The notes beneath the pieces are model-generated. The model was given only the letters and a program-made list of their open reading frames with translations. It did no database searches and had not been told where the DNA came from. The position numbers and the translations under genes were made by a program. From the NCBI GenBank assembly GCA_963756875.1, contig CAVWPA010000003.1, positions 1,280,001 to 1,344,000 of the forward strand: 64,000 nt of DNA, written 5' to 3'. This document shows positions 22,106 to 52,304 of this stretch, piece after piece. The DNA is from an uncultured Verrucomicrobiae bacterium (GTDB lineage: Bacteria; Verrucomicrobiota; Verrucomicrobiia; Chthoniobacterales; UBA10450). Every line of letters starts with the position of its first letter. Positions within the stretch are counted from its first letter, which is position 1.

Positions 22106-24379
22106 TCACTGTTTTGGGCCAAAGACTTTCTGCACCAGCGTCTGGAAGCGCGGCTCGTTGCGCACGCTGTCGTAAATTTGGTCGATCTTCAGATACCAAC
22201 AGGCGCTATCCTGCTGCTCATAGGCCCTTTCCAGCCAATCCAACGTTTTCTCCTTTTCGCCAAGTCCCAGATAGATCGTCGCGAACGCTGTCGGACTGAC
22301 GTATTGCTGTTTCGCAAGATCTTCGAGTTCGCCCAACGCTTGCTCGGCTTTCGCTCGATCTCCGGAGATGGCATAAGCGTAGCCGAGGTACCCTTGGTAC
22401 CAAGCACCGGGATTCGGCGTTTTAGCTTTTTGCAATTCCACGATCGCGTCGGCCGCGTCGCCCTTTTTAAGGAAAGAGAGGCCTATCAAAACGTGGTTGA
22501 TCGTTGAATTCGGATCCATTTCCAGCGTCTTTCTGGCCTGCGCGATCGCATCGTCGTATCGGCCCGCCCAATACTGGTAAAAACTCAGACTCATTTGAAA
22601 AAACGGATTCAGCGGATCGAGTTCGATCGCTTTCCTGGTCTTCGAGATCGCCTCGTCGAATCTGCCAAGTCCATTCACAGTCCAGGCTTGTGTCTCGTAG
22701 GCGAATGCCAGATTTGGATTTAGTTTGAGCGCACGATCGAATTCTTTCAGGCCGTTTCGCCAGTCGTAAGCGGCGACGAGTGCAAGCGCTAGCGACATAT
22801 GCGCTTCCGCCAGTTCCGGATCGAGCGCCAGCGCCTTCTGCGCAAATTCTTTTTCCTTTCCGATAGCTTCTCTCTCCGGCATCACCACGCTTCCCATGTA
22901 CGCGTAGTTGTCAGCCAGTCCGCAGTAGGCTAACGCGTAATTCGGATCCAGTCTCAGCGCCTGCTCGTAATAACGGATCGCATTATTCCAGCCAGCCTGC
23001 GTGTACTTGGCGAACTCGTAGCGCCCCAGCAGATAAAGCCGGTGCGCTTCCGGATTGTCGGTCGGCTTCTTCGTCAAAAGGCGCGTCTCTTGGACACCTA
23101 ATTTCCCCTGCAACGCCTTCACTACCTGTTCGGCCACGTTGCTCTCGAAGTTGAGAATGTCCTTCATATCGCCGTCATAATCCTTCGACCAGAGATGGTA
23201 GCCGTCGGCGACGTTGATCAGCTGTGCGGTGACGCGAAGCTTGTTGCCGGCTTTGCGAACGCTTCCTTCCAGCACCGTATTGACATGCAACTCGTCGCCG
23301 ACTTTTCGGAAAATGTCCTCTCCCGTTTTGCCCTTGAAAGCGAAACAAGATGTTCGTCCCGGCACGCGCAGCCCTGGCACCGTGGCCAGTGCGTTAATCA
23401 GTTCCTCCGTCATGCCGTCACTCAAATATTCGTCGTTCTTGTCTCCGCTCATGTTTACGAAAGGCAGGACGGCGACGCTCTTCTCCGGGATCGCCGAATC
23501 GGTAGGGGACGGCTCGGGTGCGGCGGTTTTCTTGTCGGAAAGATCTTTCTTTAATTCCTGGGTGATTTTCTTGGCGACTTCGCTCTTAATAGTATCGACT
23601 AACGAAGGGGACCCGGTGGCGGTCGGTTGAGGTACTGTCGCTGATCGGCGTTGGCCGAGCGTGCGCACAATCGCGGGAGCGAAAATCACCGACACGATGG
23701 CAAGCGCGATCAGCAAGACGGCGACAATGAAGATCGCCCGGGCGAGCGGAGAGAGGGCTTTGTGCGTCCCGGCTTTAGAGCGGGGGATGCTGCGACGCGC
23801 TTTCCCGATTCGCGTCGGTGGCGCGGGATTGCCAATTGTCTCGGCATAAAGATTAACCAACGAGACAACAAGTCCGTGTTTCATTTCCACGTCGCCCAGT
23901 TCGTGAAGATACGGCTGCCAACGACGCTGTTGTGCGAGATCGTCACCCACGCGTTTACTAATGAGAATGTGGCCGGCGTCGCCGCAATCCATCACTCGTT
24001 GCGCGATATTGATCCCTACGCCGGCAATGTTTTCCCGCTCGTTTGCGTCCTTCACGTGATGGACCGGGCCGCTGTGGATTCCTATTCTCACCGGCAGGCT
24101 CGGCTGCGCGCGCAAAGCGTGGCTGATTTCCAGGGCGCATTCAACCGGCTCCTCCACGGATCCGCTGAAAACCAGCGCCATGCCATCGCCGGTCGGCAAA
24201 ATCGTAAGTGTCCCCGCAGTCTCGGCCTCGTGGACCGCCTCGGTGTTGCGCACAATCTGATTCAACTCCTGAAGCGCTTCCGATTGTTCGTCGGTCAGGA
24301 GCTTGGAATACCCGACGATGTCCATGAAGAGCACGTGCGCGATCTCCAAACGCAGCTTGGTCTTATCGTCCTCTGCCAT
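22106..24379 (-). CDS. Class III cyclase domain + TM + TolB-like domain + TPR repeats
   Basis: FMDIVGYSK, TGDGMAL, RIGIHSG and INIAQRV; TM helix; KSVAVLPF.N.S; TPR repeats; C-terminal R.EPRFQ. Confidence 0.9.
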   Translation of the reverse strand: MAEDDKTKLRLEIAHVLFMDIVGYSKLLTDEQSEALQELNQIVRNTEAVHEAETAGTLTILPTGDGMALVFSGSVEEPVECALEISHALRAQPSLPVRIGIHSGPVHHVKDANERENIAGVGINIAQRVMDCGDAGHILISKRVGDDLAQQRRWQPYLHELGDVEMKHGLVVSLVNLYAETIGNPAPPTRIGKARRSIPRSKAGTHKALSPLARAIFIVAVLLIALAIVSVIFAPAIVRTLGQRRSATVPQPTATGSPSLVDTIKSEVAKKITQELKKDLSDKKTAAPEPSPTDSAIPEKSVAVLPFVNMSGDKNDEYLSDGMTEELINALATVPGLRVPGRTSCFAFKGKTGEDIFRKVGDELHVNTVLEGSVRKAGNKLRVTAQLINVADGYHLWSKDYDGDMKDILNFESNVAEQVVKALQGKLGVQETRLLTKKPTDNPEAHRLYLLGRYEFAKYTQAGWNNAIRYYEQALRLDPNYALAYCGLADNYAYMGSVVMPEREAIGKEKEFAQKALALDPELAEAHMSLALALVAAYDWRNGLKEFDRALKLNPNLAFAYETQAWTVNGLGRFDEAISKTRKAIELDPLNPFFQMSLSFYQYWAGRYDDAIAQARKTLEMDPNSTINHVLIGLSFLKKGDAADAIVELQKAKTPNPGAWYQGYLGYAYAISGDRAKAEQALGELEDLAKQQYVSPTAFATIYLGLGEKEKTLDWLERAYEQQDSACWYLKIDQIYDSVRNEPRFQTLVQKVFGPKQ

Positions 24380-35303: not shown

Positions 35304-35711
35304 TCACCGTTTCAGCTTCGCTCGGAGCTGTCGTTCAATGTCGTCGTCGTCGTAGGTTCGCCGCACCGGAACGCGCAAAATCGGTAAGCTGGCGATCTCA
35401 AGTATTCGATCAACGTCGCGGTCTCGTGCTTGGCGATCTGGGCGTTGATGCGAGGAATCGTCAAGCTCGACAGCGATGATCGGGCAGAGTGCTGCGTCGC
35501 AGACCACAAAATCGACATGTTTTGAGCAGATCCGCCTGAAGTTTGCTTGCCGCAGGCGATGTCGTTCGTCGGCCTCGACTAAATCAGCCAGCCTCACTTT
35601 TGCGTGGACAGTGTGTGGGACTACAATGCGGCGAAGAACTCCGTAGAAGTATCTTTCGGCCCGCGATAAAAGGAATTTCCGGCGAAAAAATGGCTTCAGT
35701 GCAACGTCCAT
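35304..35711 (-). CDS. DUF2726 (PD-(D/E)XK-like) protein
   Basis: LLSRAE..F, KVRLADL, KHVDFVVCD, AVELDDSSH, RD and LPILR motifs. Confidence 0.88.
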   Translation of the reverse strand: MDVALKPFFRRKFLLSRAERYFYGVLRRIVVPHTVHAKVRLADLVEADERHRLRQANFRRICSKHVDFVVCDAALCPIIAVELDDSSHQRPDRQARDRDVDRILEIASLPILRVPVRRTYDDDDIERQLRAKLKR

Positions 35712-35815
35712 CCATGAAATTTCAGCAGTTGATATGCCGACCACAGCAATTGCGTGCCCGAACAGTGGGGACGAAACTTGCTCTTTAAAGCCTTTTCGAA
35801 GAAAGTCCTGAAACG

Positions 35816-36520
35816 ATGACGAACACAGAGACCCAAGACGTGAGAGAACTGCCTGCGTACGGAGTTGCGGAGGCAGCGCACTACCTTCTGGTCCCCCGCG
35901 CGACTTTGCGTTCGTGGCTCGCGGGAATGTCATACGGTACAGGCTCCGGACGAAAACTATTCAAACCCGTGATTCAGCCGGCTGCCAGGTCCCCGGTCGC
36001 ACTTTCGTTTGTTAATTTGATTGAGGCCCATGTCCTGGCCGCCATCCGGCGAAAATATCGAGTCGACATGCCGGCCGTTCGTAGATCCATCGACTTTTTG
36101 AAAAATAAGCTTGGCTCGGCGCATCCTCTCTCTGATCACAAATTCGAAACCAACGGTGTTGACCTGTTCATAGAACGTTACGGGCAGCTCATGTCTGTAT
36201 CGCAAGGTGGGCAGCTTGCAGTGAGAGAATTGCTGAAAGCACATCTGCGCAGAATCGAACGCGATGAGAAAGGATTTCCACTGCGGCTTTATCCATTTAC
36301 GCGCGTGGGTGACACCGATCAGCCGAGGAACATCGTCATCGATCCGTTTGTGTCATTTGGTCGTGCCGTCATTTCTGGAACGGGAGTGAGCACCGAGTTG
36401 GTTGCCGAACGCTTCAAGGCCGGCGAATCCGCGGACGAACTCGCCAGCGATTACGGCTGCGAACGGGAAAAGATTGAAGAAGCGATCCGTTGCGAACTCA
36501 GCCTCGCCGAAGCCGCCTGA
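35816..36520 (+). CDS. DUF433-domain antitoxin (VapB45-like)
   Basis: N-terminal HTH (Y...EAAHYL.VP..TLRSW), SF.NL.E, and C-terminal IDP...FGR.V..GTGV...AGES...LA.DY. Confidence 0.85.
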   Translation: MTNTETQDVRELPAYGVAEAAHYLLVPRATLRSWLAGMSYGTGSGRKLFKPVIQPAARSPVALSFVNLIEAHVLAAIRRKYRVDMPAVRRSIDFLKNKLGSAHPLSDHKFETNGVDLFIERYGQLMSVSQGGQLAVRELLKAHLRRIERDEKGFPLRLYPFTRVGDTDQPRNIVIDPFVSFGRAVISGTGVSTELVAERFKAGESADELASDYGCEREKIEEAIRCELSLAEAA

Positions 36521-36908
36521 AGAACTCACTTTCTTTCTCGATCGCCAACTTGGCCGTTACAAGATGGCTGGGGCGCTTCGGAATGCCGGTCTCAAGGTCG
36601 AGATACACGACGATCATTTTCCGCAGAACGCTCAAGACCCGGAGTGGTTGGCAGCGGCTGGGAAGAACAACTGGGTTGTAGTCACGAGGGATGAACGCAT
36701 TCGCTACCGTGTCGCCGAGAAACAAGCGATCCGCCGCGCCAAAGTCCGGGCATTCGTGATCGCTGCTCAAGGCGATTTGCGAGCAGAAATACTGGCAGAC
36801 ATTTTTCTCAAAGCGCTTCCCAAAATTCGGCGAACCGTGAAACAGCGGAAGCCGCCCTTCATCGCAAAGATTTCACGCGGCGGCGACGTCGTTGTCCTTG
36901 AATTCTAA
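36474..36908 (+). CDS. PIN-domain toxin (VapC45-like)
   Basis: FFLDRQLG, D.EWL and VVTRDERIRY motifs; likely TTG start at 36474 overlapping the antitoxin end. Confidence 0.82.
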   Translation: MKKRSVANSASPKPPEELTFFLDRQLGRYKMAGALRNAGLKVEIHDDHFPQNAQDPEWLAAAGKNNWVVVTRDERIRYRVAEKQAIRRAKVRAFVIAAQGDLRAEILADIFLKALPKIRRTVKQRKPPFIAKISRGGDVVVLEF

Positions 36909-36945
36909 TCTCTGACTTGTGACCGTCGACCTGCGGGCTTTCAGC

Positions 36946-37241
36946 CAGTGTCGATAGTTAGCTCAGACCCCTTTTTGCCTGACCCGTTGTGCGACGTCTT
37001 CGCCGGCTCCGCGCCCTTAGCCCTTACCGCTTCGCCCTTACCCCCTTGCTTCCCGCAGCGCGCGAATACGAAGCCAAACTCAAAATGCGGAAAAAGAACA
37101 AAATGGAGCGAAAGGGTTGAGCGACATAGAAGGTAAAGCCGTAAGGGTAGCGGCGAGAGAGCGTAGGAAGCGACCGAGTTTCAAAGCCCGCGCGTCAGTG
37201 CCGCAGTTCTGACGCAGCAGTGTCGATAGTTAGCTCTGACC
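36946..37241 (+). repeat. 24-bp direct repeat CAGTGTCGATAGTTAGCTC(A/T)GACC
   Basis: Copies at 36946-36969 and 37218-37241; a diverged copy at ~30247-30271. Confidence 0.75.
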
Positions 37242-37263
37242 GTTAGCTAGTTTCCGTGGTAAT

Positions 37264-37896
37264 TCAGTGGGGCGTCTTGGGCGGCAGGCCTTTAAAGAAG
37301 ACGACCGGCTTGAGCGCGTTGAGCTTTGCCGTCACACTCCTGCGACCAAGTTGATATTCAATTACGGGAGTCATATCAAAGACTCCTTCGGACTTTCCGC
37401 GGACGACAATTTCAATCGATTCCTGATCGTTTGCTTTAACGACGTTAAAGTTAGCGTTCGGGTCCGTCACGTGTGCATCAAAATCTCCCGTGCGACCTTC
37501 GACAGCGCATTCGTATTGCCTATATTGGCTTCCCGCGACCATCTCTCCGTTACCGACATATATTTTCCCCTGTCGGTAACTTGAGACTTGGATGCGGATG
37601 CTAGTCAGAGTAACGGTGAACGGGTTCCGGTTTGTTACCTGGAAACGAACAATCGGCGCCTGTGTCTCGCGACCTGTTCGGAAAATCGGGTTATCGATCG
37701 TAGGAAAACCATAAAGACCCTTCAGCTGTTCCCCGTTGCGGAGGTCGACCCCGTTAATGTCGTAACCGCGTTGCGGCGCTGCTACAGCTTCGCCGAATTC
37801 GAGAGGCTTAGAACGTTCTTTTAGCCAGTAAAGCAGAAGAGATACTGAAGCGCCCGCGACGATCGCAATTATCGCTACCCAAACGGCAGGAGTCAT
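37264..37896 (-). CDS. Hypothetical single-TM-anchored protein directly downstream of hsdR
   Basis: N-terminal TM helix then a beta-rich domain; starts 5 nt after the hsdR stop. Confidence 0.7.
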   Translation of the reverse strand: MTPAVWVAIIAIVAGASVSLLLYWLKERSKPLEFGEAVAAPQRGYDINGVDLRNGEQLKGLYGFPTIDNPIFRTGRETQAPIVRFQVTNRNPFTVTLTSIRIQVSSYRQGKIYVGNGEMVAGSQYRQYECAVEGRTGDFDAHVTDPNANFNVVKANDQESIEIVVRGKSEGVFDMTPVIEYQLGRRSVTAKLNALKPVVFFKGLPPKTPH

Positions 37897-37901
37897 GGTC
37901 T

Positions 37902-41072
<3,171 letters not shown>

Positions 41073-41075
41073 GGA

Positions 41076-42189
41076 CTAGACTGGTTCTGAAAAGAGACTC
41101 GCTGAATCGCAGACGCATCCAACCGAGCATCACGAGGTGATGAATGGCGCTGGCGACCTCCAGCTGTTTCTCGTCCGTCCGCCACGCCTTTTTCCAGTCC
41201 AGAATGAAATCGTAGAGCTGCTGTTCGGCGACTTCCTCTCCTGGTCTTGCGCGCTTGAGCTCCCGGCTCGCGAAGAGAACTGTCAGGACTTCCTCGGCTT
41301 GATCCGTATTCTTGATTCGGCTGAAAAGGTCGACCGTTTTCGCGATCCGTTTCGCGTGCCGTTCGATCACCTCGGTGTATTTGAGCCGATCCTCTTCGTA
41401 TTGCGGGGCTGCGCGCAACGCGGTCATTTTGCCCAGCTGCTCTTCGCGCACCCAGTTCCGGTTCGCCAATTCATGAAGGGCGATTTTTACCTCATCCGCG
41501 AATGGTCCGTAGCTTCCTTTTTCAAAACGGAAACCGGTTTGAACTCCCGTCTCCGTGAGGACGTAGGCAATTTTTTGTAAAATGGTTCGCCCCACCGGAT
41601 TCGTGTACGGCTGCTGACCCAGTTCACGCACCACCTCCACCAGCGCCACCCATTCAGGATTAAGCTTCTCTGGCGACGGCCTTTGCCGCTCAGGCTCATC
41701 TGCGAATTCGCGCCGAGGAAGTCCAGAGTGAGTTCATTTTTTGGCGTGCCGTAGGGGGCATAAACCTCCACATCGAAGTCGGCGTCGCGCAGCTTCGAAT
41801 AAATAAGCGGCCCAACCTCCGACCAATCCAGTCCGCCGTTTCCGCAGCCGAGAGGTGGAAAGGCCACGCTTTGGACGCCCCACTCCTCAGCGTGCGCGAC
41901 GAAGTAATCCAGGCCCCGGTTCATATCCGCGAGCCGCGATGCGGATCGCCAGTGATCTTTGGTCGGAAAGTTCACGATCATCGCACCGCCTGGATCGCGG
42001 TAAAGATACGGTTCACCCAACCGCACTTGTTTGCGCATGCACCGCGCGGCGTAATCTTCGAACATCGTCGGGTAGGCCTTCTTAAACTCCAGCGCGACGC
42101 CTTTCCCCATCACGCCAACGCAGTTCACGGTATTGATCAGCGTTTGAGCTGGGCTGTCGGAAAATGTCTCCGATCAGAGGTTTGAACAT
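41076..42189 (-). CDS. darG: DarG macrodomain antitoxin (frameshifted near 42160, 41665 and 41090)
   Basis: NTVNCVGVMGKGVALEFK, VNFPTKDHWR and PPLGCGNGGLDW; C-terminal LQKIAY...F.KG.YGPF. Confidence 0.88.
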
Positions 42190-42201: not shown

Positions 42202-42788
42202 TTAGTGAAAGAATAAGGCCGAATCGACCACAATGGATAGTCCAAAGCCGAGTGCTCGGAGACGTTCCTCCGAGGTTTTGTCTACGCGGTACGCCCCCAG
42301 AAGGTATTCGGGTCCCACCCGATGCGGCACGAGCACTTCGGCGCATTTATGCGCGCTGTGCCTCCATTCCGCGATTTGGTCGTCAGGATGCTTCCAATTC
42401 AAGGCAAAGATATCCTCAAACGCGAGCACCCGCCACTGCGATGGAGCGAGGAACCGAACATACTTGCTTGAAGCATTGGAGTCGGCCAGGACGACGCCAT
42501 CTAAATTGAGCACATCAATCGAGACACGCAGAACACAAAGTTCCGTGGCTTCTTTTCTTCGCTTGGAGAGCATCGGATTTCGCGCGTGAAAATAGAGATT
42601 CGCATATTGATGCAGTTTTAGGCCGCTCGGCACCTGCTTCGATCCCGCAAATCTTGGACTGCCTGTAACGCCACCGAGCGGTGCTCCAGGCGGGCCGCCT
42701 GTTCGTGGGAGAGAATGCCGTGCTTCAAGACCGATGAGACGTTCTCAAGCGGCATGATGCACTGAAATTCGGTTACGCGCGGGTCCAT
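42202..42788 (-). CDS. darT: DarT DNA ADP-ribosyltransferase toxin (DUF4433), frameshift near 42645
   Basis: SVLKHGILS, LHQYANLYFHARNPML, DSNASS and catalytic CAEVLV; directly upstream of darG. Confidence 0.88.
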
Positions 42789-42854
42789 CGGTAGGTCGTA
42801 GCTTAGCGAGAGAACTCTATTCCCGAGGAGTCAATCTTCTGCTTCGCATCCATG

Positions 42855-43716
42855 TCATGGATGCTTCTCTTCAGACCAAGCTTCTGACGACATTTTCGGC
42901 AAAAGAGTGGCGCATCGAGCCGGGAGAAATTCCTTTCAACTCGAAGGTTTCACCCGTGATTTCGTGCGTCATGCGCGAAGCAAAACCAGCAATGAAATTC
43001 AGGATTGATCGAAATTCTTGCTCGGTTACTTCCCGAGCAAGCACGCCGAAAAGCTCCACCGAGTCCGTCCTTTGGCTCTGCTCCGGGAAGCGTGTGAAGT
43101 CGTTTCGCCAAGTTCACCGACTCACCCAAGAGAGTCCACTCACTATAGCCTTTCCTTCAATGCGATCCACGAACTGTAGGCCGGACCAGAGGCCGATTCG
43201 GAACGGATAGTTTGGTCCCAAGGGTGCGCTGGAGATCGTGCAGACTCCCGAGCAAGAAGCTCATGTCAAAGATTCCGGGAACTCCGCCGTCTGCCTCCAT
43301 GTCCGGTACAACAAACATAACTTCGTCTCCGATGGTCTTATCAACGAGTGCGCCGGCGTCGACAGCCTTATCCGTGATGCCGACAAGGAATGGCTTCAGG
43401 TATTCGCTAATTTCCGATGGCGATGAACCTGCAACGCGCGTCGAGAAACCGATCAAGTCTACGAAACCGACGAAGCCCTTAATTTCCCGCTGGCCGAAGT
43501 AAGCATTGGCAAACGCCGCGCCGCTGTCGGTAAGTTCGAGAGCGCGAGTGGAGTAAGCCCGAGGGTGGCGGCCGAGTCGATGTAGACCGGCTCGATGTTC
43601 AAGCCATTCATCCGTCTTTCGTCCAGCAATCATGCGGTCACCTGAATCATGTGCGTTCGAAACTCCACGAACCAGCTTGACGCTTCTTCAATTCTTGCAT
43701 CGTCCAACAAGGTCAT
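42855..43716 (-). CDS. Stand-alone class III nucleotidyl (adenylate-type) cyclase, several frameshifts
   Basis: Reassembled by hand: FVDLIGFS, VDKTIGDEVMF, FRIGL, EWTLLGESVNLAKRL and ELKG. Probable ATG at 43716; start and end are approximate. Confidence 0.78.
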
Positions 43717-43723
43717 GCTCAAG

Positions 43724-44623
43724 TTACCAACCGGCTTTCTTAGCTTCCGCGATCAGCGCCGCTGCACTGTAATTCATTTGGTTTTCGAAATCATTCCGTA
43801 ACCATCGGAAAATGCGGTCAAACACGAGCGGGCTCTTGCGGCGATTGTCGAAGACTTCGTCCTGAAGAAGCCGCGAGGTTGCCGTGACGTCGGCCTCCAC
43901 CTTCCCAACTAGTGCATCAGTCCACAGTTGCTGCGCATGATCTTTCAAAGCATCAAGGCGCTTTGCCGCCTCCAGTTGCTCGGTCAATTGCCTAACACCG
44001 AGGATCAGCAGCGGCGCCAAGGGGGCCACCACGCTGACAACAAATGTTCCAGGCTGAGTTGCCTTTGCAGCGCGACGCACAAAACAAGTCCGCAGATGAA
44101 AAGCACAAGCGATATGATGATAACGGCGTACCGGCGTCTCTGTTTTGCGTCCCACCAGCAATTCGAGCGTTGACACACGATGCGCCCGAGATGGAGCGGC
44201 AGCTGTGAGACCGAAGGGGCATACCAGTCGCGGAGAGTTGGCATCTCAGCCCGGAAGGGCGTATCGCCCTGATTTGTTCCTTTATCAGTTCCGGGTCCGG
44301 TCTGTGGCCAGCCTTGACTGAATTCCATGGGAGCTGAAGCACGTCACAGTCGAACTCCTCTTGGACTCGCGCCGCTCGTTCCCTGAGCAACTTCTGCCAT
44401 GGGGTCAGCCAGAGCACGTCGCACAGTGCGACGCCGATTCCGAAAAGAGCGGAGTAACCTTTTAGGTTTGGCCAGATCAAGCCAATCACGGCGGAAACGA
44501 CAGCGCCAGGGCCGCTCAGTATGATCAAGGGGTACTAAAGACACGCTTCGCTGGACCGGACAGCTGCCGTTGAGCGGCCAGTCGCTCGAGCTGTAGTGGC
44601 GAATTCTGTTCCGCAGCGATCAT
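43724..44623 (-). CDS. S-4TM (SMODS-associated four-TM) CBASS membrane effector, frameshifted
   Basis: EQNS...L..LAAQRQL..PAKR, AARVQEEFDCDVLQLPWN, LRDWY, CQRSNCWWDAKQRRRY and RLLQDEVF.NRR.SPLV across frames. Confidence 0.85.
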
Positions 44624-44625
44624 AC

Positions 44626-45497
44626 CTAGTAGGAGTAGGTCGGAAATTCGTAGTTATATAAAAGTCGCCACCAGTCGAACGCTTCGGAGATTTTCCCCTT
44701 GGCAGATTCATCACGAGCGTTTTGCGCGCGGGTGTATGCGGTTTCCAGCTTCGAGAGGGCGTCTGTCCGTGCGGCATCACTCTTGCAGGGTGCGATGTAT
44801 CCAGAAACTCCCATGGGATCCTGCAAGCTCGGTAGTTGACCATCCCAAAGTAACTTCAGAACGTTTCTGACATCATACTCATACATGATCGTAGTTTCTC
44901 CAGACGCATACTTCGCTACTCGAATCTCCAAATAGAATGACGAGATCGGAACAGCGCGGAAGTATTTCCAGGCTTTTAGATATCGAATGAGGGGCTTGAC
45001 CCTTTTGGCTAATTTGTCATCGACGGACCGCACGTACGCATTGTGCGCGTCCGGACTCGCTTTCATCCAACCGCCTGAACAGTCTGCGATATCGTAGACC
45101 TTGAAGCCGTTGGTCTCTCCAGTGCAATCTGCCGGCACGATCTCTGTTATTTCCGACTTCCTGGTGCCGAAAGGAACAGCAACCGCTGGACAGTTGACCG
45201 CCACACCAGTGTCGGAAACCGCGTATCCAGCGCGTTGCGAACCTTGACCAATGATGAGGTAGAAACCTGCGTCAGTTGATCGGTAGGAAGAGAGGCCAAG
45301 TAGTCGACATCGCTATATCTCGATATGCTTGTCCAGTTACCAAAAGAGCCGATACGAGCGAACCGCTTCAACCCGAAATTATTCTTGAGGCATGCCTCGA
45401 TTGACGCGCGGTGGCTTTTAGCGGCATCGGACTCGCCCGTTTGGGGTTTCAGCTTCGACAGGAAATCGTCAAAGCCTTCTTCGATAGTTCGCGGCAT
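44626..45497 (-). CDS. CD-NTase / SMODS nucleotidyltransferase (CBASS synthase), one frameshift near 45210
   Basis: GSF...TSI..YSDVD (GS plus DxD), PAV.V.F, EIVPA, W...SP, KPLIRYLKAW, SF.LE, DP and C-terminal W..L...FP. Confidence 0.87.
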
Positions 45498-45499
45498 AT

Positions 45500-46758
45500 C
45501 TATTGCCTCATTGACTTCTGTTCTGTACTCTTCCCGCTCAGCAGCTTCGGCAGCAGCGTGTCGCGCAGGGTGTCAGAGTGCGGGCTTCTCTTCATTGTTC
45601 CGAATCTGAAAACCAACGGCTTGCAAACCGGCCAAACGCGTCGTAATTCGCCGGCGGTACGGGACGACTGACTTGAATCACAGAAGTCGTGCCAATGCCC
45701 TTCGTATTCGGAGAACGACGAACGGCCCATCGGTTGCATAGTAGAGCCCAAAAGGTATCAAGGCCCGAAACCGACGAACGGCAGGACTTCTGACTCGCGG
45801 AAAAAGAATATCGTGATCAGCCGCATGTAGCGGTGTGATTTGCAAAAACCGCGACTAGGCCTTTTGGGTCGCTGATCACGTCCCGGCTCGTTGCTGTGAA
45901 ACGCTCATTATGAAGCCGATCGCCTTGGTCCAGAGACTGATATTTTCGCACCGGGGATAGGTCTCTGTTAGTGCTTTTGCCCGACGAAAGGGCTTGATGA
46001 ACTCCCCAATTTTCATCACTTTCCAGCCTTTCGGAATGTGACCAAGCTCTGAATTTTCGAACTCGTTAGGGAAGAGAGCGGCGGTGGCGGGGTCGAGGCC
46101 GGCGGGTTGGCGGCCGTCGAGTTTGGCGCGGACGGGGTCGAAATCCACGAACCAGCTCTGGAACAGCGCCCGCGCCATCGCCTCCAGCGTCGCGTTCATC
46201 CGCCGGTTCAACTCGATCTTGTCGTCCAGCGCCCCAAGCACCGCCGCGATGGCTTTTTGCTCGGCGAGGGGTGGGACGGGATTGAAACTCGATAGATGTC
46301 GTCGCGACGTAAGTGCTTCCTGACTGTCGCGTACCGCGGCAGTGCCACCAATGAAGGCTGATCGTGCGCAGTGATTCAGAAAAGTAGCAGAAGCGCTGGT
46401 CTGGCTCGCCCCTTGCAGCTAACGGACTGCTTGATTAAGCAAACGCGTTGCCTTCGCAACGCAACACGGTACTGCCGACGTCCGATCAGCCGAGTTAATC
46501 AGCGTTCAGCGAGAACGCCAACAGTCGCGATGAAACAGCATCACCTCTCGTGAGTTGTAGCTTCAGCTACTTCGGCGAACCTTCGTAATCGAAGTCGTCC
46601 ACTCGTCGCGCGCATGCCATCGCCGATACTTGAACGTTCACGCATCAACGAAGGCATCGCGGCTCGGACCGATAGTGATCGCTCTTGAAGAGGCAAACCC
46701 TTTCCATGTGGCGCAACGCCTTCACAGCGAGTTCAACGTCTGTCCATTCACTCGCCAT
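45500..46758 (-). CDS. hsdS: Type I R-M specificity subunit; conserved regions readable, both TRDs garbled
   Basis: ATG at 46758 overlaps the hsdM stop. Central [30 protein letters not shown]...ELG.IPKGW and terminal [12 protein letters not shown] are intact. Confidence 0.8.
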
Positions 46759-48358
46759 AACCCAACCCCCTCAGGTTTGCTTTGATGGCCTGCTCCAGTT
46801 TCGCGGACTCGGCGAACTGGGCGTGCAGTTCGGCGACGAGGCGCGGCATCTTTTCCTCGAAGGGGTCGCCGTCGTCTTCGACTTCCTCGGCGCCGACGTA
46901 GCGGCCAGGCGTCAACACATAGCCATGCGACGCGATTTCGTCAGTCGTGGCTGACTTACAGAAACCGGCGACATCTTGTATGTCGCCGGAGTTCGTTATC
47001 GGTCCTGTGTTACGGTGGTCGCCTCTCCATGCGTGATAGGTGTTCACGATCTTCGCGTGATCGGCTTCGGTGAGTTCGCGGTGGACTCGGTCGATGAGCG
47101 TTCCCATTTTGCGCGCATCGATGAAGAGGGTTTCGCCTTTGCGGTTGCGACGTTTCAAAGCAGACGGCCGGAACTCGCCCCGCCGGTTTTGTTTTTCGCC
47201 AAAAACCAAAGGCAGACGGGAATCTGCGTGCTGTAGAAGAGCTGGCCGGGGAGGGCGACCATGCAGTCGACGAGGTCGGCCTCGATGAGGGCTTGCCTGA
47301 TTGTCCCTTCGCCGGACTGGTTGGAGGACATGCTGCCATTGGCGAGGACGAAGCCGGCCATGCCGTGGGGCGCGAGGTGGTGGATGAAGTGCTGCACCCA
47401 GGCGAAGTTGGCGTTGCCCCGGGGCGGGACGCCATACTGCCAGCGCACGTCGTCGTCTTTGCGGAACCAGTCGGAGTCGTTGAAGGGCGGGTTGGCGAGG
47501 ACGTAGTCGGCGCGGAGGTCGGGATGGAGGTCGCGCCGGAAGGTGTCGGCGTGCTCGGGGCCGAAGTCGGCCTCGATGCCGCGCAGGGCGAGGTTCATGA
47601 CGGCGAGGCGGCGGGTGGTGGGGTTGCTCTCCTGGCCGTAGATGCTGATGTCGCCGAGCTTGCCGCCGTGGGCTTCGACGAATTTCTCCGATTGCACGAA
47701 CATGCCGCCGGAGCCGCAGCAGGGATCGTAGATGCGGCCTTTGTAGGGGGCGAGCATCTCGACGAGGAGGCGGACGACGCTCTGCGGGGTGTAGAACTGG
47801 CCGCCTTTCTTGCCTTCGGCGCTGGCGAATTGGCCGAGGAAGTATTCGTAGACGCGGCCGCAGGACGTCTTTCGAGCGGCGGCCTTGTCGCCCAGGCCGA
47901 TCGTGCCGATGAGGTCGATGAGTTCGCCTAAGCCGATGTTTATCGAGCGCGGGCCGGGCGTATTCTTTCGGGAGGACGCCTTTGAGGCGCGGGTTGTCGC
48001 GCTCGATCGCGACCATCGCGTCATCGACGATCTTGCCGATCTCGGGCTGCTTGGCGCTGTTCTGGAGATAGGTCCAACGCGCGCCAGGCGGAACCCAGAA
48101 GACGTTGACGGCTTTGTATTCGTCCTGGTCTTCGGGATCGGCACCAGCGTAATCGCCTTTGCCTTCTTTCAACTTTGCGTGGTGCTCTTCAAAAGCGTCG
48201 GAGATGTACTTCAGGAAGATGAGGCCGAGGACGACGTGCTTGTATTCGGCCGCGTCCATGTTGCTGCGCAGCTTGTCGGCGGCGAGCCAGAGCTTGGCTT
48301 CGAATCCGATATTGGCGGAATTGTTGTTCGACGAGGCTTTGGATTTCCCGCGCGCCAT
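46748..48358 (-). CDS. hsdM: Type I R-M N6-adenine methyltransferase, frameshifted
   Basis: [35 protein letters not shown] and LTPGRYVG motifs. Confidence 0.93.
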
Positions 48359-48615: not shown

Positions 48616-48920
48616 GGCGAGGAAGGACGACAAGACCGCGGACTACGGGACAACGAGGACGCGGAAAAGCCGAAAACGAAAGAAACGTCGAACCCTCCTT
48701 CGCCATGCTCCGGCGGGCAGGCTGCCCAACGTCCAATGTCGGAAATGCAGAGGATGAGGTCATTTGGGAAGTGGCGAGTGACCCACCGCGGCGGGTTCGT
48801 CTAAGCGAACATGTGGCGAGTGACGAGAAGGAACGAAGGCTGCAATCTTCGAGGACGATCAGCGAGCGAGTTTCAAATTAAGAATTAGAAATTAGGGAGC
48901 AGATGCGTTATTCTTGTGCT

Positions 48921-49124
48921 ATGAGCGCGACGGAAATCATCGAGCAGTTCAAGGCTCTTCCCGCCACTGAGCGGGCCCAAGTGGCCAAGTTCGTTGTGGA
49001 AAACGATGATTCCTGGATTCCGGATTCCTTTAAGCAAGGTATGGCCGATGCCGCTGCCGGTCAGTTTGTGGATATGAAAACCGCGCTCAGCGGAGCAAAA
49101 CCGCCGTCTCGAGCGGCGGAATGA
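48921..49124 (+). CDS. Putative antitoxin
   Basis: Small acidic protein whose stop overlaps the start of a RelE-like gene (ATGA). Confidence 0.7.
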   Translation: MSATEIIEQFKALPATERAQVAKFVVENDDSWIPDSFKQGMADAAAGQFVDMKTALSGAKPPSRAAE

Positions 49125-49390
49125 AATACTTTGCTACCCAGCGATTCTGGGAAAGCTTCTACGCCCTTTCATCAAGCCAGAAGGAGTCTACGCGTCGAGC
49201 TTGGGCAATCTTCAAGGAGAATCCTTTCGATCCACGACTGCGAACTCACAAGATTCACAGGCTTTCGGCCCGGTTCAATCGCACGATTTACGCGGCCGAG
49301 ATTGAAGCTGACTTGCGAGCGGTATTTTACATCGAAGCCGATGTCGTGGTGACGGTGGATATCGGCTCGCACGATATTTATCGCGGGTAA
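49121..49390 (+). CDS. RelE/ParE-superfamily toxin
   Basis: F...F..L, F.ENPFDPRLRTHK, LRAVF and DIGSHDIY motifs. Confidence 0.8.
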   Translation: MKYFATQRFWESFYALSSSQKESTRRAWAIFKENPFDPRLRTHKIHRLSARFNRTIYAAEIEADLRAVFYIEADVVVTVDIGSHDIYRG

Positions 49391-49652: not shown

Positions 49653-49966
49653 CCGCCTACGCCAAGGCTTCGGCGTGATTCGTCCCGCTTCGCGGGCGAA
49701 AAAGAGGTGAGGGTTAGCGCAAGGCGCCGTTGAGGAGGGTAAGGGGCTTGGCTCCCCGAGCCAAGTCGCCGGCTTCCCTAGGTCGCGGTTGCGACCTCCC
49801 GCCGTAGAGTTCGCGCCCTGCGAACCGTAGAGGTCGGAGGACGGAATTTGTTCGGAGGGAGAACAAAACAACGAAGGGCGACCGCCTACGCCAAGGCTTC
49901 GGCGTGATTCGTCCCGCTTCGCGGGCGAAAAAGAGGGTGAGGGTCAGCGCAACGCGCCGTTGATGG
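49653..49966. repeat. ~83-bp direct repeat that includes the last codons of the OLD gene
   Basis: 49653-49735 versus 49882-49966. On the minus strand the copies read LNGALR-TAA and INGALR-TGA. Confidence 0.85.
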
Positions 49967-51968
49967 AAGTGATCAATTTTTCCCAGCTGGTGCGTTCGGT
50001 GTCGGACAGGTTGGCGGCGGTGTGGTCTCGGGTCCAGCGCACGAATGCTTTGGCCAGGCGGTATCGGGAAAAATCGCCGATCTGGGTTTTGAAAATATTG
50101 ACCACGGATCTGCCGGGCTCGGCGTTGGAAGCGGCTGCGACGTCCCAGTTCAGCTCGGTCCGGGCGACGTGGACCAGGGTGTCGCGCAGCAGATCTTCAA
50201 CTGCCGGGCGTTCGAGCGGGCCGTCGTAAACATCTTTGGTCCGGAGAACGGATTTGTTGCCGAGCGCTTGCACGAGGCGTTCCTGGTGCGCGGCCTGGTC
50301 GGGAAACATTTCCGAATCCAATAGTGCTGCGACTTTGAGTTTGGATGCGTGCAAAACCGTGGCGTAATAAACCACCTTGCCGGCGCCGCTCGCGGGCAGA
50401 AGCGAGATCTTGTCACTGAGATCGGCAATGCCGGCATCGCGCAACAGTTGGGCGACCGCGTCGAGGTACCAGTAATCGGTCAGGCTCTCAAGAACGAGAT
50501 TGCGCTGCTGCGCGAACAGACTCTGGGCAAGATCGTACCCGAGCGATTCTCGTAACGGCAAAAGCGCAACCGGGTCTTCGGCGGCAATGCCGGTGTGGAC
50601 CTTGGTGCCAACGGTGCGGTCGGTCATTTCCACGACCCGAACCAGATTCAACTCGTCCGGCCCGACCAGAAACGGCGAGTGCGTGGTATACATGGTCTGA
50701 TTAGATTCGGCCAGGCGGGAAATGGTGTTGCGGAATTCGCGTTGCTTGAGCGCGTGCAAACTCAGGCCTGGTTCGTCGAGCAGCAGGATGGCGTTTTTGT
50801 GATTCTTCGCGGCCTCGGCGAAAAAGACGATGAAGAACGAGACCAGCCACTGAAAACCTTCCGAACGCTGGTCGAGCTCGATCTCAACCCCGACGTCATC
50901 CTCGACAATCATTTTGAGATACTGACCATCGCACACGATGCGCAAGCGCTCAGCTTCATCGCGTTTCGAATCGGGCATCCAGGTGGCGCGCAACTCGTCG
51001 GTCAGCCGGACACTGGCGGCGTTCAGTTGGTAGGAGCGACGATCGAGTTGATCGCGATAAGCCTGGAGCGCGGCCGGATCACCCATCGGCGGTTCCTCGC
51101 CCTTGCCGAGATCGGAAAGCTCGCGGGCGCTGAACCCGAGCAATTTCAAAAGACATTTGTTTCCGTAATCGTAGTAATCGTCGTCGATCAGGTTGCGTTC
51201 GATGCGTGTGGCGAGATGATCGAGATGAATCAGCGGACGAACACGGAAGAAATCGCGGAACCGAATGAACAAGGGTAAACGCCGGCCCAGGGTCCAGAGC
51301 ACGTTTGAGCGCTGGTCGTTCGCCTCAATGGTCTTGACCAGGTCGTCGTAGCGTTTTTCTTCGACTTCGTTTTTTTCTTCGACGTGCGGGAAGGCCTTTT
51401 CGATTGCCGCCTTCAAAATCCGCGCGGGCTCGCCAGCGAGCTCGTAATCGTCTTTCCAATCGTGGGCCAGGGCAACGATCGGGGTGCTGGGAGGATCGGC
51501 CGGCGACATGTCCGGTGCCGGCGCCGGCACATGGCTGTCGATGTGCGCGCAAAAACGGGCCAGATCCTTTTTGATGTCGCCGAATTTCTTTGCCGGTGGC
51601 GCGCCGAGAAAATCGTGCCAGAACGAATTATCCAGTTTCCGACCGAACACGTAATCGTATTGGCGATATTCAGCCGGAATTGTCTCCTTGTCCTCGTCGG
51701 TCAGGCCGAAGTGCGCTTCGACCACTGTGACCTGGCTGGGCAGGATTTTTCCAGAATTGATATCGTCGTATTCCGAGCGCGGATAATCGCGCAGCGGATC
51801 GAAGGCGCGAATGCCAACCGGAGGATTGATTCGCTGGATCGCTTCCAGGAGAGCGGTCTTCCCGGCCTCGTTAGGCCCGATCAAAATAGTTTTGCCTTTC
51901 TCGAGATCGAACCATCCGCTGTCGCGAATGGAACGATATTTTGTGACCCGAACCCTTTTTAGAAGCAT
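49944..51968 (-). CDS. OLD-family ABC ATPase with C-terminal TOPRIM-like domain
   Basis: YRSIRD, Walker A GPNEAGKT, signature RSEG, Walker B LLLDEP, TTHSP and TOPRIM-like LVLESLTD...LLDSE; ATG at 51968. Confidence 0.85.
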   Translation of the reverse strand: MLLKRVRVTKYRSIRDSGWFDLEKGKTILIGPNEAGKTALLEAIQRINPPVGIRAFDPLRDYPRSEYDDINSGKILPSQVTVVEAHFGLTDEDKETIPAEYRQYDYVFGRKLDNSFWHDFLGAPPAKKFGDIKKDLARFCAHIDSHVPAPAPDMSPADPPSTPIVALAHDWKDDYELAGEPARILKAAIEKAFPHVEEKNEVEEKRYDDLVKTIEANDQRSNVLWTLGRRLPLFIRFRDFFRVRPLIHLDHLATRIERNLIDDDYYDYGNKCLLKLLGFSARELSDLGKGEEPPMGDPAALQAYRDQLDRRSYQLNAASVRLTDELRATWMPDSKRDEAERLRIVCDGQYLKMIVEDDVGVEIELDQRSEGFQWLVSFFIVFFAEAAKNHKNAILLLDEPGLSLHALKQREFRNTISRLAESNQTMYTTHSPFLVGPDELNLVRVVEMTDRTVGTKVHTGIAAEDPVALLPLRESLGYDLAQSLFAQQRNLVLESLTDYWYLDAVAQLLRDAGIADLSDKISLLPASGAGKVVYYATVLHASKLKVAALLDSEMFPDQAAHQERLVQALGNKSVLRTKDVYDGPLERPAVEDLLRDTLVHVARTELNWDVAAASNAEPGRSVVNIFKTQIGDFSRYRLAKAFVRWTRDHTAANLSDTERTSWEKLITSINGALR

Positions 51969-52304
51969 CCTGAACCGAGAATATGTTTTTGTCGGTTTAA
52001 AGGAAAGATTTCTTTGGGCCTGTGAATAAGTCTGATGTGAATAGTTTGTGAATAACAAACTGAGGACGGAGGTCGACGAGCCGTCCGTTAGCAAAGGGGG
52101 AAGAGGTAAGGGGTAAGGGGGAAGAGCTTTGCGCGGCATGATTCGGACGAACCGGTCTTTGAGGTCACAAATTGTGACCAGTTCCGGATGCGGGAGATTT
52201 AGCGCCATAGGCGCCGGTAAGCGCGAAGAGGCAAGGGCGAAGCGTCCGCATGGCGGAGGCGGAATTGCTTGCTAAAGTACGCGGTTTAAAGGTACAACCA
52301 TCCC

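Follow-up and report, generated by a model that had tools for sequence, protein, structure and literature searches.

The 64,000-nucleotide (nt) stretch considered here, called the window below, comprises positions 1,280,001 to 1,344,000 of contig CAVWPA010000003.1 (C3) in the 2.69-Mb genome of an uncultured Verrucomicrobiae bacterium, and its minus strand carries, inside a type I restriction operon, a gene for a stand-alone class III nucleotidyl cyclase that follows a two-gene system for antiphage signalling by cyclic oligonucleotides (CBASS). We consider it probably an orphan class III cyclase gene of the restriction operon, separable from the CBASS and a candidate defence cargo. The first-pass annotation of this DNA had coupled the gene to the CBASS, as an accessory gene, a part of a hybrid system or a toxic effector, and the comparison of homologous loci described below points away from that coupling. 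Together with its relatives it forms a family of orphan cyclases with a place inside restriction operons that seems not to have been described before; no account of the family was found in the literature on Pycsar, class III cyclases, defence islands and embedding in restriction-modification (R-M) operons.

The cyclase is a genuine gene. Three-frame translation of positions 42780-43800 gave five open pieces, which succeed one another in protein order (Table 1), and reading through them requires four frame changes, at approximately 43217, 43147, 43048 and 42923, where the letters are CCC, CC, AAAA and GGG, respectively. The minus strand of 42855-43716 thus contains fragments alone, in agreement with the first-pass annotation, which had rebuilt the protein by shifting the frame; the motifs it had named (FVDLIGFS, DKTIGDEV, EWTLLGESVNLAKRL and FELKGIS) are all found in the fragments exactly. 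The closest homologue, P0002 (264 amino acids, aa), is colinear with all five pieces and shows 89% identity over the first of them; across the pieces, identity to the intact homologue is 84-89%, and all catalytic residues are retained. A search with the largest fragment as query supplied the homologues, 25 of which make up the alignment called A1, and the profile of A1 matched the cyclase in the window with E values of 7.3e-75 and 3.1e-17. Applied to the whole genome, the same profile found one copy of the family, at this locus.

In all 25 homologues of A1 the protein begins at an MIAG-type methionine, which corresponds to the ATG at 43633, and the contig of a relative from a soil metagenome loses its homology to the window exactly at this position. 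We therefore place the start there, which gives a protein of about 258 aa ending at the stop codon 42855-42857; the sequence AGGTGA lies 4 nt upstream of the ATG. An earlier proposal of a start 7 nt past the S-4TM stop codon (43724-43726) was right in that an ATG exists there, at 43716, but the frame it opens ends after 28 codons, and the length of about 285 aa derived from it has to be shortened accordingly. A scan for promoter-like and terminator-like sites found none on the minus strand of the spacer between the S-4TM gene and the cyclase, and its counts were close to those in shuffled sequence.

A modelled fold, profile comparison and residue conservation together confirm the product as a class III nucleotidyl cyclase, in agreement with the earlier assignment of a stand-alone enzyme with a Lys/Thr pair. 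The fold was studied with the intact homologue P0002, standing in for the broken copy of the window. Its AlphaFold (AF2) model, with a predicted local distance difference test (pLDDT) value of 89.9 and a predicted template modelling score (pTM) of 0.87, has the class III fold: the best Foldseek match was CyaC (1wc3, E 9.4e-12), and VIA-align superposed the model on CyaB of P. aeruginosa (3r5g; Z 16.9, root-mean-square deviation 3.0 Å over 179 residues) and on CyaC of Spirulina (1wc0; Z 16.7). Against the sequences of the PDB, the A1 profile gave 45 matches, every one of them to a class III adenylyl or guanylyl cyclase, and CyaB scored best (4.4e-14). The architecture is a conserved N-terminal segment of 48 residues followed by a single cyclase homology domain; the segment, in which W/Y10, H13, R14 and G16 are conserved, is peculiar to this family.

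The residues expected of the active site were counted in 122 distinct relatives. The two metal-binding Asp residues, D58 and D102, which lie in FVDLIGFS and IGDEV of the window, and the substrate Lys, K98, are each present in 122/122, and the motif D-K-T-I-G-D-E is invariant across the family. At the second specificity site, position 166, which aligns with the DYT of CyaB in the alignment of the A1 profile with PDB sequences, 97 relatives have Thr and 19 have Ser (T or S in 116/122), and Arg R177 is kept in 119. In class III cyclases, a Lys combined with Asp or Thr at these sites marks specificity for ATP.

Some observations tell against this identification. The transition-state Asn is present in only 53/122 relatives, the others having mostly His (42), Gln (11), Ile (9) or Ala (4); the cyclase of the window itself carries the Asn...Arg pair, in VNLAKRL. 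A Pfam search of the five fragments gave 0 matches at E <= 1, and P0002 scored 15.7 bits against PF00211, below the gathering cut-off of 21.9; a genome-wide search with PF00211 did not flag the locus. Because Pfam found nothing in the fragments, the identity is drawn from the homologues, 18/25 of which match PF00211 at E <= 0.1 (best 5.6e-7). The homologues number 56 and are mostly 247-264 aa long; 'class 3 adenylate cyclase' is the source name of a few, and three have PF00211.

The protein may act as a head-to-tail homodimer with its active sites at the interface. A homodimer prediction scored 0.62, against 0.00 for the best of three controls; the mark used is reached by 20/30 solved one-chain pairs and by 1/23 solved single chains, counts that hold only roughly for a prediction made, like this one, with its own alignment. 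The runs agreed in at least 95% of contacts, with a pLDDT of at least 82 for the partner, and the predicted interface comprises residues 61-64, 97-101, 164-173 and 177, that is, it includes the catalytic and specificity residues. Since class III cyclase dimers have already been solved, the pass may reflect memory of those structures and not independent support.

The association with restriction operons was evaluated in 97 loci, of which 18 are from genomes and 79 from metagenomes, after seven weak loci (L027-L033), which matched Actinomycetota cyclases only in part, over 55-131 residues, had been dropped. The family is rare, amounting to 97 representative clusters (50% identity; E <= 1e-30) among 1.84 billion proteins. 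Using a uniform tblastn search, type I, Hma or other R-M genes were found in 32/97 loci. When only loci of at least 5 kb were counted, such genes were present in 19/37, compared with 0/16 control loci, which are the surroundings of other cyclase genes and of genes for proteins binding cyclic nucleoside monophosphates (cNMP) in the same genome. The cyclase start abuts hsdS in four loci (L010, L040, L042 and L048) and elsewhere abuts an hsdM remnant (L011), hsdR (L014), a type ISP enzyme (L022) or an Eco57I-type methylase (L034), and the order hsdS, cyclase, further genes, hsdR is found in both L010 and L048. Within type I operons the usual place of the cyclase is immediately behind hsdS. Type ISP/IIG and methylase-Mrr operons are further embedding hosts, and other neighbours are AbiJ, PDC-M03 candidates, GmrSD and toxin-antitoxin genes. 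An early suggestion had been that homologues would be enriched near CD-NTase or other defence genes; the enrichment is seen near other defence genes and not near CD-NTase.

In a sister clade the cyclase lies between HmaA (6.8e-172) and HmaB (2.6e-109), with HmaC (4.9e-131) downstream, as identified with PADLOC. Its members (L024, L088-L092, L098, L103 and L104) are divergent (29-37% identity), sit on long branches and are always between hmaA and hmaB. None of the HEC models of PADLOC v2 matches this Hma-embedded clade, and no HEC or PDC model of that version matches the cyclase family. The tree has 77 rows, 21 loci having been left out of it (cyclase open reading frame (ORF) <200 aa or <180 profile positions covered). 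It separates an Hma clade of 13 rows, nine of them in Hma, from the subclade of the window, whose 20 rows comprise seven type I, four AbiJ, one other R-M and seven other contexts in addition to the query P0002.

Some members have neighbours or additions of their own. In L010 (7807-9490) and L044 (996-2677), the candidate pair PDC-M03A/B of PADLOC stands directly behind the cyclase in a type I operon. The pair (HipA_C-like and HIRAN) scored 1.7e-105 and 2.6e-79 in L010, and the order in both loci is cyclase, PDC-M03A, PDC-M03B, hsdR, preceded by hsdS in L010; the sequence of L044 starts roughly 100 nt upstream of the cyclase. A search for fused ('longer') forms gave one generic HAMP-cyclase (2.4e-4), and in 12 longer representatives no effector domain was found, a GNAT, a Peptidase_S74 and a receiver domain occurring in one each. 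One fusion is the 392-aa protein of L017:6566-7741 (P0086), in which an N-terminal GNAT acetyltransferase domain precedes the cyclase, and a protein with a cytidine-deaminase domain is encoded beside it. A collection of viral contigs contained 0 relatives of the family; one family member, L019:6866-7723, lies in a prophage-like region between terminase/portal genes and a primase.

Our results also indicate that the CBASS is a separate cassette of 1.9 kb inserted between hsdS and the cyclase, and that the cyclase stands outside the CBASS pair. In the soil run X2, a contig of a relative (553 nt, depth 3.9; one contig) joins the 3′ end of hsdS to the cyclase ATG, that is, position 45533 to position 43633, with 32 other letters between them. 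In the 97 homologue loci, tblastn with the CD-NTase, S-4TM, DarT and DarG of the window gave 0 matches. A Pfam scan of 131 + 150 neighbouring ORFs (281), which left out one selected ORF (L111:606-1532), found no SMODS, S_4TM or cNMP_binding domain. Clustering of 600 ORFs from the 97 loci placed the cyclase in 90 loci and found no partner cluster in more than 11. Alone, the CD-NTase/4TM pair makes up a complete two-gene CBASS of type I. Considering the 0/97 loci, the X2 contig and the completeness of the pair, the adjacency of cyclase and CBASS is therefore an insertion in a defence island and not operon design. A relative of the CD-NTase was found in only 1/400 other genomes of the phylum, too rare to inform the reciprocal test, and a search for repeats flanking the cassette gave only short matches at chance level.

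The family resembles the class IIIb cyclases CyaB and CyaC in the fold of the cyclase homology domain, in the two Asp, the Lys, the Thr and the Arg, and in the head-to-tail homodimer predicted here. Unlike CyaB and CyaC, it has no sensor or membrane domain, possesses its own 48-aa N-terminal segment, varies at the transition-state Asn, is divergent enough in sequence for many members to fall below the PF00211 cut-off and sits inside restriction operons. Pycsar consists of the class III cyclase PycC and a cNMP-binding effector, and here, too, a class III cyclase occurs in a setting of defence genes; in contrast to Pycsar, no adjacent cNMP-binding effector was found in the 97 loci or in the window. 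PDLC00734, the PycC model of PADLOC, is matched by 25/25 members of the family (best 1e-12). The same model matched 7/10 unrelated multidomain class III cyclases used as control, several of them more strongly (2.9e-22 to 4.5e-54); the model is thus generic to class III cyclases, and the label 'PycC-like' was dropped.

The classic embedded gene is prrC, whose product is an anticodon nuclease that the EcoprrI restriction enzyme keeps under control. Payne et al. (2024, bioRxiv 10.1101/2024.01.29.577857) describe genes for defence that lie within Hma, BREX, DISARM and type I R-M operons and apply 'guilt-by-embedding' to them. The cyclase is nested in a similar way, between hsdS and hsdR in the window and between hmaA and hmaB in the sister clade, and the PDC-M03A/B pair that it adjoins in L010 and L044 is a candidate pair of the same study. 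On the basis of this embedding, we regard the cyclase as a candidate gene for phage defence or for the regulation of defence. The main text of that study does not contain the terms cyclase, Pycsar, PycC, adenylate or cNMP, and its supplementary tables may list the family.

In the mechanism that we propose, the homodimer would make a cyclic mononucleotide, which the Lys/Thr pair predicts to be cyclic AMP (cAMP). With no conserved partner beside the cyclase, the signal would need a receptor whose gene lies elsewhere. The genome has nine cNMP-binding (PF00027) matches, all outside C3:1280001-1344000, so the earlier observation that no cNMP-binding effector is encoded nearby holds for the whole window. 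The gene itself would travel as a single cargo within restriction-type operons, as a defender, a tuner of restriction or a passenger.

The cyclase looks cryptic because the whole surrounding type I restriction operon carries small indels. Approximately 19 indels of one or two bases, mostly in homopolymers, were found within 10.5 kb from hsdM to hsdR (37.9-48.4 kb of the window), and the genes for CD-NTase, S-4TM, DarT, DarG, HsdR, HsdS and HsdM are all split between frames like the cyclase. Using three intact HsdR proteins as tblastn queries, the matched stretches switched among three frames. In 10-kb bins along C3, the length-weighted median ORF is mostly 320-550 aa, compared with 243 and 180 aa in the two bins covering 30-50 kb of the window. 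The genes flanking the operon, at 35816-37914 and 49947-52208, are intact.

The most probable source of these indels is faulty consensus in a long-read assembly where the island varies between strains. Small shares of the region (0.05-0.11) are present in four soil-metagenome runs, as short-read contigs of relatives, and no conclusion on habitat is drawn from such shares. At 43048, 43147 and 43217, three of the four breaks of the cyclase, the contigs differ from the window by one-base indels and keep the frame open. The segments 42217-42684 and 42802-42918 of the window have no contig cover in any run, which places the fourth break (~42923) and most of DarT outside the comparison. The other indel state was also found in the S-4TM gene at 44044, 44273 and 44529 and in the CD-NTase gene at 45213, where runs X1 and X4 have an extra G and a contig of 161 nt is identical to the window except for this indel. 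The contigs further revealed a compensating pair at 43186/43189, because of which the window reads 'WSG' where the family has 'SYG'. Two points count against an origin in the assembly: the comparison rests on relatives (88-100% alike) at a depth of 2-6 and not on source reads, and the indel at 44044 lies outside any homopolymer.

The alternative is that the indels are real and that the entire restriction island, including the cyclase, consists of recently decayed pseudogenes, the cyclase being inactive in this genome. The restriction of about 19 breaks to one operon with intact flanks would fit decay, homopolymers are also natural hot spots of frameshift, the genome, in 3 contigs only, is 87.6% complete, and the indels were judged without the reads of the source assembly. 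We nevertheless consider decay rather unlikely: all listed differences between contigs and window are indels of one or two bases; the pieces matching homologues contain no in-frame stop and no larger deletion; the cyclase pieces have kept their identity to the intact homologue together with every catalytic residue; and the intact frame is present in short-read contigs of independent origin, of which one is identical bar the indel. The lesson is that strain-variable defence islands in long-read metagenome-assembled genomes can be locally full of homopolymer indels, and 'cryptic' genes in such islands should be compared with relatives before they are interpreted.

With respect to function, the cyclase could be an ordinary enzyme of cAMP signalling with no role in defence, the restriction operons being just hot spots for mobile cargo. 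The family shares its Lys/Thr pair with housekeeping adenylyl cyclases of class IIIb, to which its best structural matches, CyaB and CyaC, also belong; the eight other class III cyclase matches and the nine cNMP-binding matches of the genome are likewise compatible with this explanation, and the PycC model is non-specific, with multidomain cyclases outscoring the family. Several features of the loci likewise weigh against a role in defence. In 65/97 loci no R-M or Hma gene is present in the available DNA, which is shorter than 3 kb in 43 loci; in one clade of 29 rows, 24 lack an R-M context; and the neighbours include plain housekeeping genes, namely an aminotransferase (L046/L047), a tRNA synthetase (L059) and a GMP synthase (L079). 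Moreover, the loci were gathered by two-motif scans, so the sample favours close relatives, and related loci do not count as independent. Housekeeping signalling is nonetheless unlikely in view of the difference between the long loci and the controls, the association of the gene with four or more kinds of restriction-type system in separate clades, its AbiJ, PDC-M03, GmrSD and toxin-antitoxin neighbours and the lack of a sensory or regulatory domain in the family.

A more specific form of the defence role, which we put forward only as speculation by analogy, is that the minimal cyclase guards the restriction system. Co-expressed with type I, Hma or ISP complexes, it would read their state and send a cyclic-nucleotide alarm to receptors encoded elsewhere; the trigger could be, for example, inhibition by anti-restriction proteins or runaway translocation. 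The cyclase would then be the signalling counterpart of PrrC. If true, this would be the first cyclic-mononucleotide defence signal without an adjacent dedicated effector, wired to restriction and not to Pycsar or CBASS.

An orphan Pycsar-type cyclase, making cCMP or cUMP on infection and having an effector that was lost or is encoded elsewhere, is very unlikely. The match of 25/25 members to PDLC00734 and the location of the gene in a defence island would agree with it, but that match is non-specific, no cNMP-binding or transmembrane effector is conserved beside the gene in the 97 loci, and no Pycsar-named entry appears in the 45 PDB-sequence matches or among the approximately 50 Foldseek and 50 VIA-align matches listed.

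Second cyclases have precedents in and beside such systems. Panoptes reportedly uses a small mCpol cyclase, a Cas10-like polymerase making a decoy signal, together with its own adjacent membrane effector as a guard in phage defence. The present protein is similarly a small stand-alone cyclase of the palm superfamily, but neither an adjacent effector nor the Cas10-like type was found here. In CBASS-DAC, as reported (PMC13069673), a CBASS has recruited a diadenylate cyclase (DAC), so that a second cyclase is encoded with the CD-NTase and the effector, as the first-pass annotation had proposed for the window. There the second cyclase is a DAC domain integral to the function of the operon, whereas here it is of class III, and its adjacency is unconserved (0/97) and separable. 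Neither CBASS-DAC nor Panoptes fits the present data. Within the window, the cyclase is co-oriented with the CBASS, 90 nt downstream of it with no predicted terminator between, and co-transcription or cross-talk with the CBASS may occur in this genome. Despite this arrangement and the precedents of CBASS-DAC and Panoptes (PMC12657218), it is most improbable that the cyclase is a CBASS accessory gene, acting with the CD-NTase and S-4TM as second signal generator or toxic effector, as none of the 97 homologue loci contains a relative of the window's CD-NTase or S-4TM, the 281 neighbouring ORFs scanned lack SMODS and S_4TM, a relative has the cyclase directly behind hsdS with the CBASS missing, and the pair is complete without it.

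The order on the minus strand is hsdM, hsdS, CBASS, cyclase, DarTG, hsdR (Table 1). The PF01420 match of hsdS at 46182-46280 is the sole one in the genome. The CD-NTase matched the PADLOC cyclase model PDLC00776 (6.7e-80 and 2.2e-32, covering model positions 1-287), and the S-4TM protein matched the PADLOC 4TM effector model (1.1e-32 and 8.1e-25). A scan of the window for tRNA genes found none. At the 3′ end of hsdS, 40 nt (45533-45572) are conserved and common to soil contigs X1, X2 and X4, the downstream flanks of which differ, and loose ends of soil contigs were found at 45533 and 45572; the segment looks like a recombination anchor for cargo swaps behind hsdS.

Table 1. Cyclase locus and neighbouring genes in the window
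Feature	Position	Strand	Evidence and remarks
Stand-alone class III nucleotidyl cyclase gene, ~258 aa	42855..43633	minus	frames, homologues, A1 profile, fold of homologue, catalytic residues
Cyclase piece 1	43160-43633	minus	MIAG...FVDLIGFS...DKTIGDEV
Cyclase piece 2	43117-43260	minus	...PNYPFRIGL...
Cyclase piece 3	42953-43156	minus	GYSEWTLLGESVNLAKRL...
Cyclase piece 4	42874-43113	minus	...FGVLAREV...FELKGIS
Cyclase piece 5	42858-42935	minus	...PARCATLLPKMSSEAWSEEKHP, then stop 42855-42857
Spacer from S-4TM stop to cyclase ATG, 90 nt	43634..43723	minus	sequence
CBASS cassette, 1899 nt, absent from relative	43634..45532		contig of run X2
CBASS S-4TM effector	43724..44620	minus	at least 2 frames; 5′ end approximate; PF18159 6e-24, 3.8e-22
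CBASS CD-NTase (SMODS)	44626..45497	minus	split in 2, one indel ~45213; PF18144 1.8e-8
hsdS, type I specificity subunit, broken	45500..46747	minus	PF01420 at 46182-46280; tblastn with L010 hsdS 82%/45 aa
hsdM, type I methylase	46748..48358	minus	at least 2 frames; HsdM_N 6e-28; N6_Mtase 6.3e-87 in second frame, 47158-48144
DarT toxin	42202..42788	minus	2 frame pieces, directly downstream of cyclase; PADLOC DarT 6.2e-18, 1.3e-5; PF14487 1.3e-18
DarG antitoxin, macro domain	40972..42128	minus	2 frame pieces; PADLOC DarG 1.1e-58, 1.5e-20; Macro 4.2e-16
hsdR, type I restriction subunit	37902..41075	minus	at least 6 frame changes; HSDR_N, SWI2_SNF2, T1RH-like_C in separate pieces

Other genes of the window lie around the operon. 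Just outside it, an intact 754-aa ATPase (AAA_15/AAA_21; 49947-52208, minus strand) matches the AriA, Old and GajA models of PADLOC (best 4.5e-22). Between this gene and hsdM, two small abutting ORFs of 73 and 89 aa (48903-49387, plus strand) have no Pfam match, and their layout resembles a toxin-antitoxin pair. At the other edge of the island, overlapping DUF433/HTH_66 and PIN_10 genes (35816-36905, plus strand) are probably a toxin-antitoxin module, and a DUF2726 gene lies at 35307-35933. An intact 757-aa protein encoded at 22109-24379 (minus strand) combines a class III cyclase domain (PF00211, 1.4e-7) at its N-terminus with C-terminal TPR repeats, and is unrelated to the cyclase family described here.

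For this genome, the CBASS neighbourhood of the cyclase is a coincidence within a defence island, and its 'cryptic' state is most likely an artefact of assembly. What is left is a modest lead, a class III cyclase that is rare, strictly conserved and without an effector and that recurs, across Verrucomicrobiota, Planctomycetota, Ignavibacteria and other groups, as the first cargo behind hsdS in type I operons and between hmaA and hmaB in Hma operons. If the cyclase defends against phage, cyclic-mononucleotide immune signalling would extend beyond Pycsar, and the family would offer a test case for the cooperation of embedded cargo with restriction systems.

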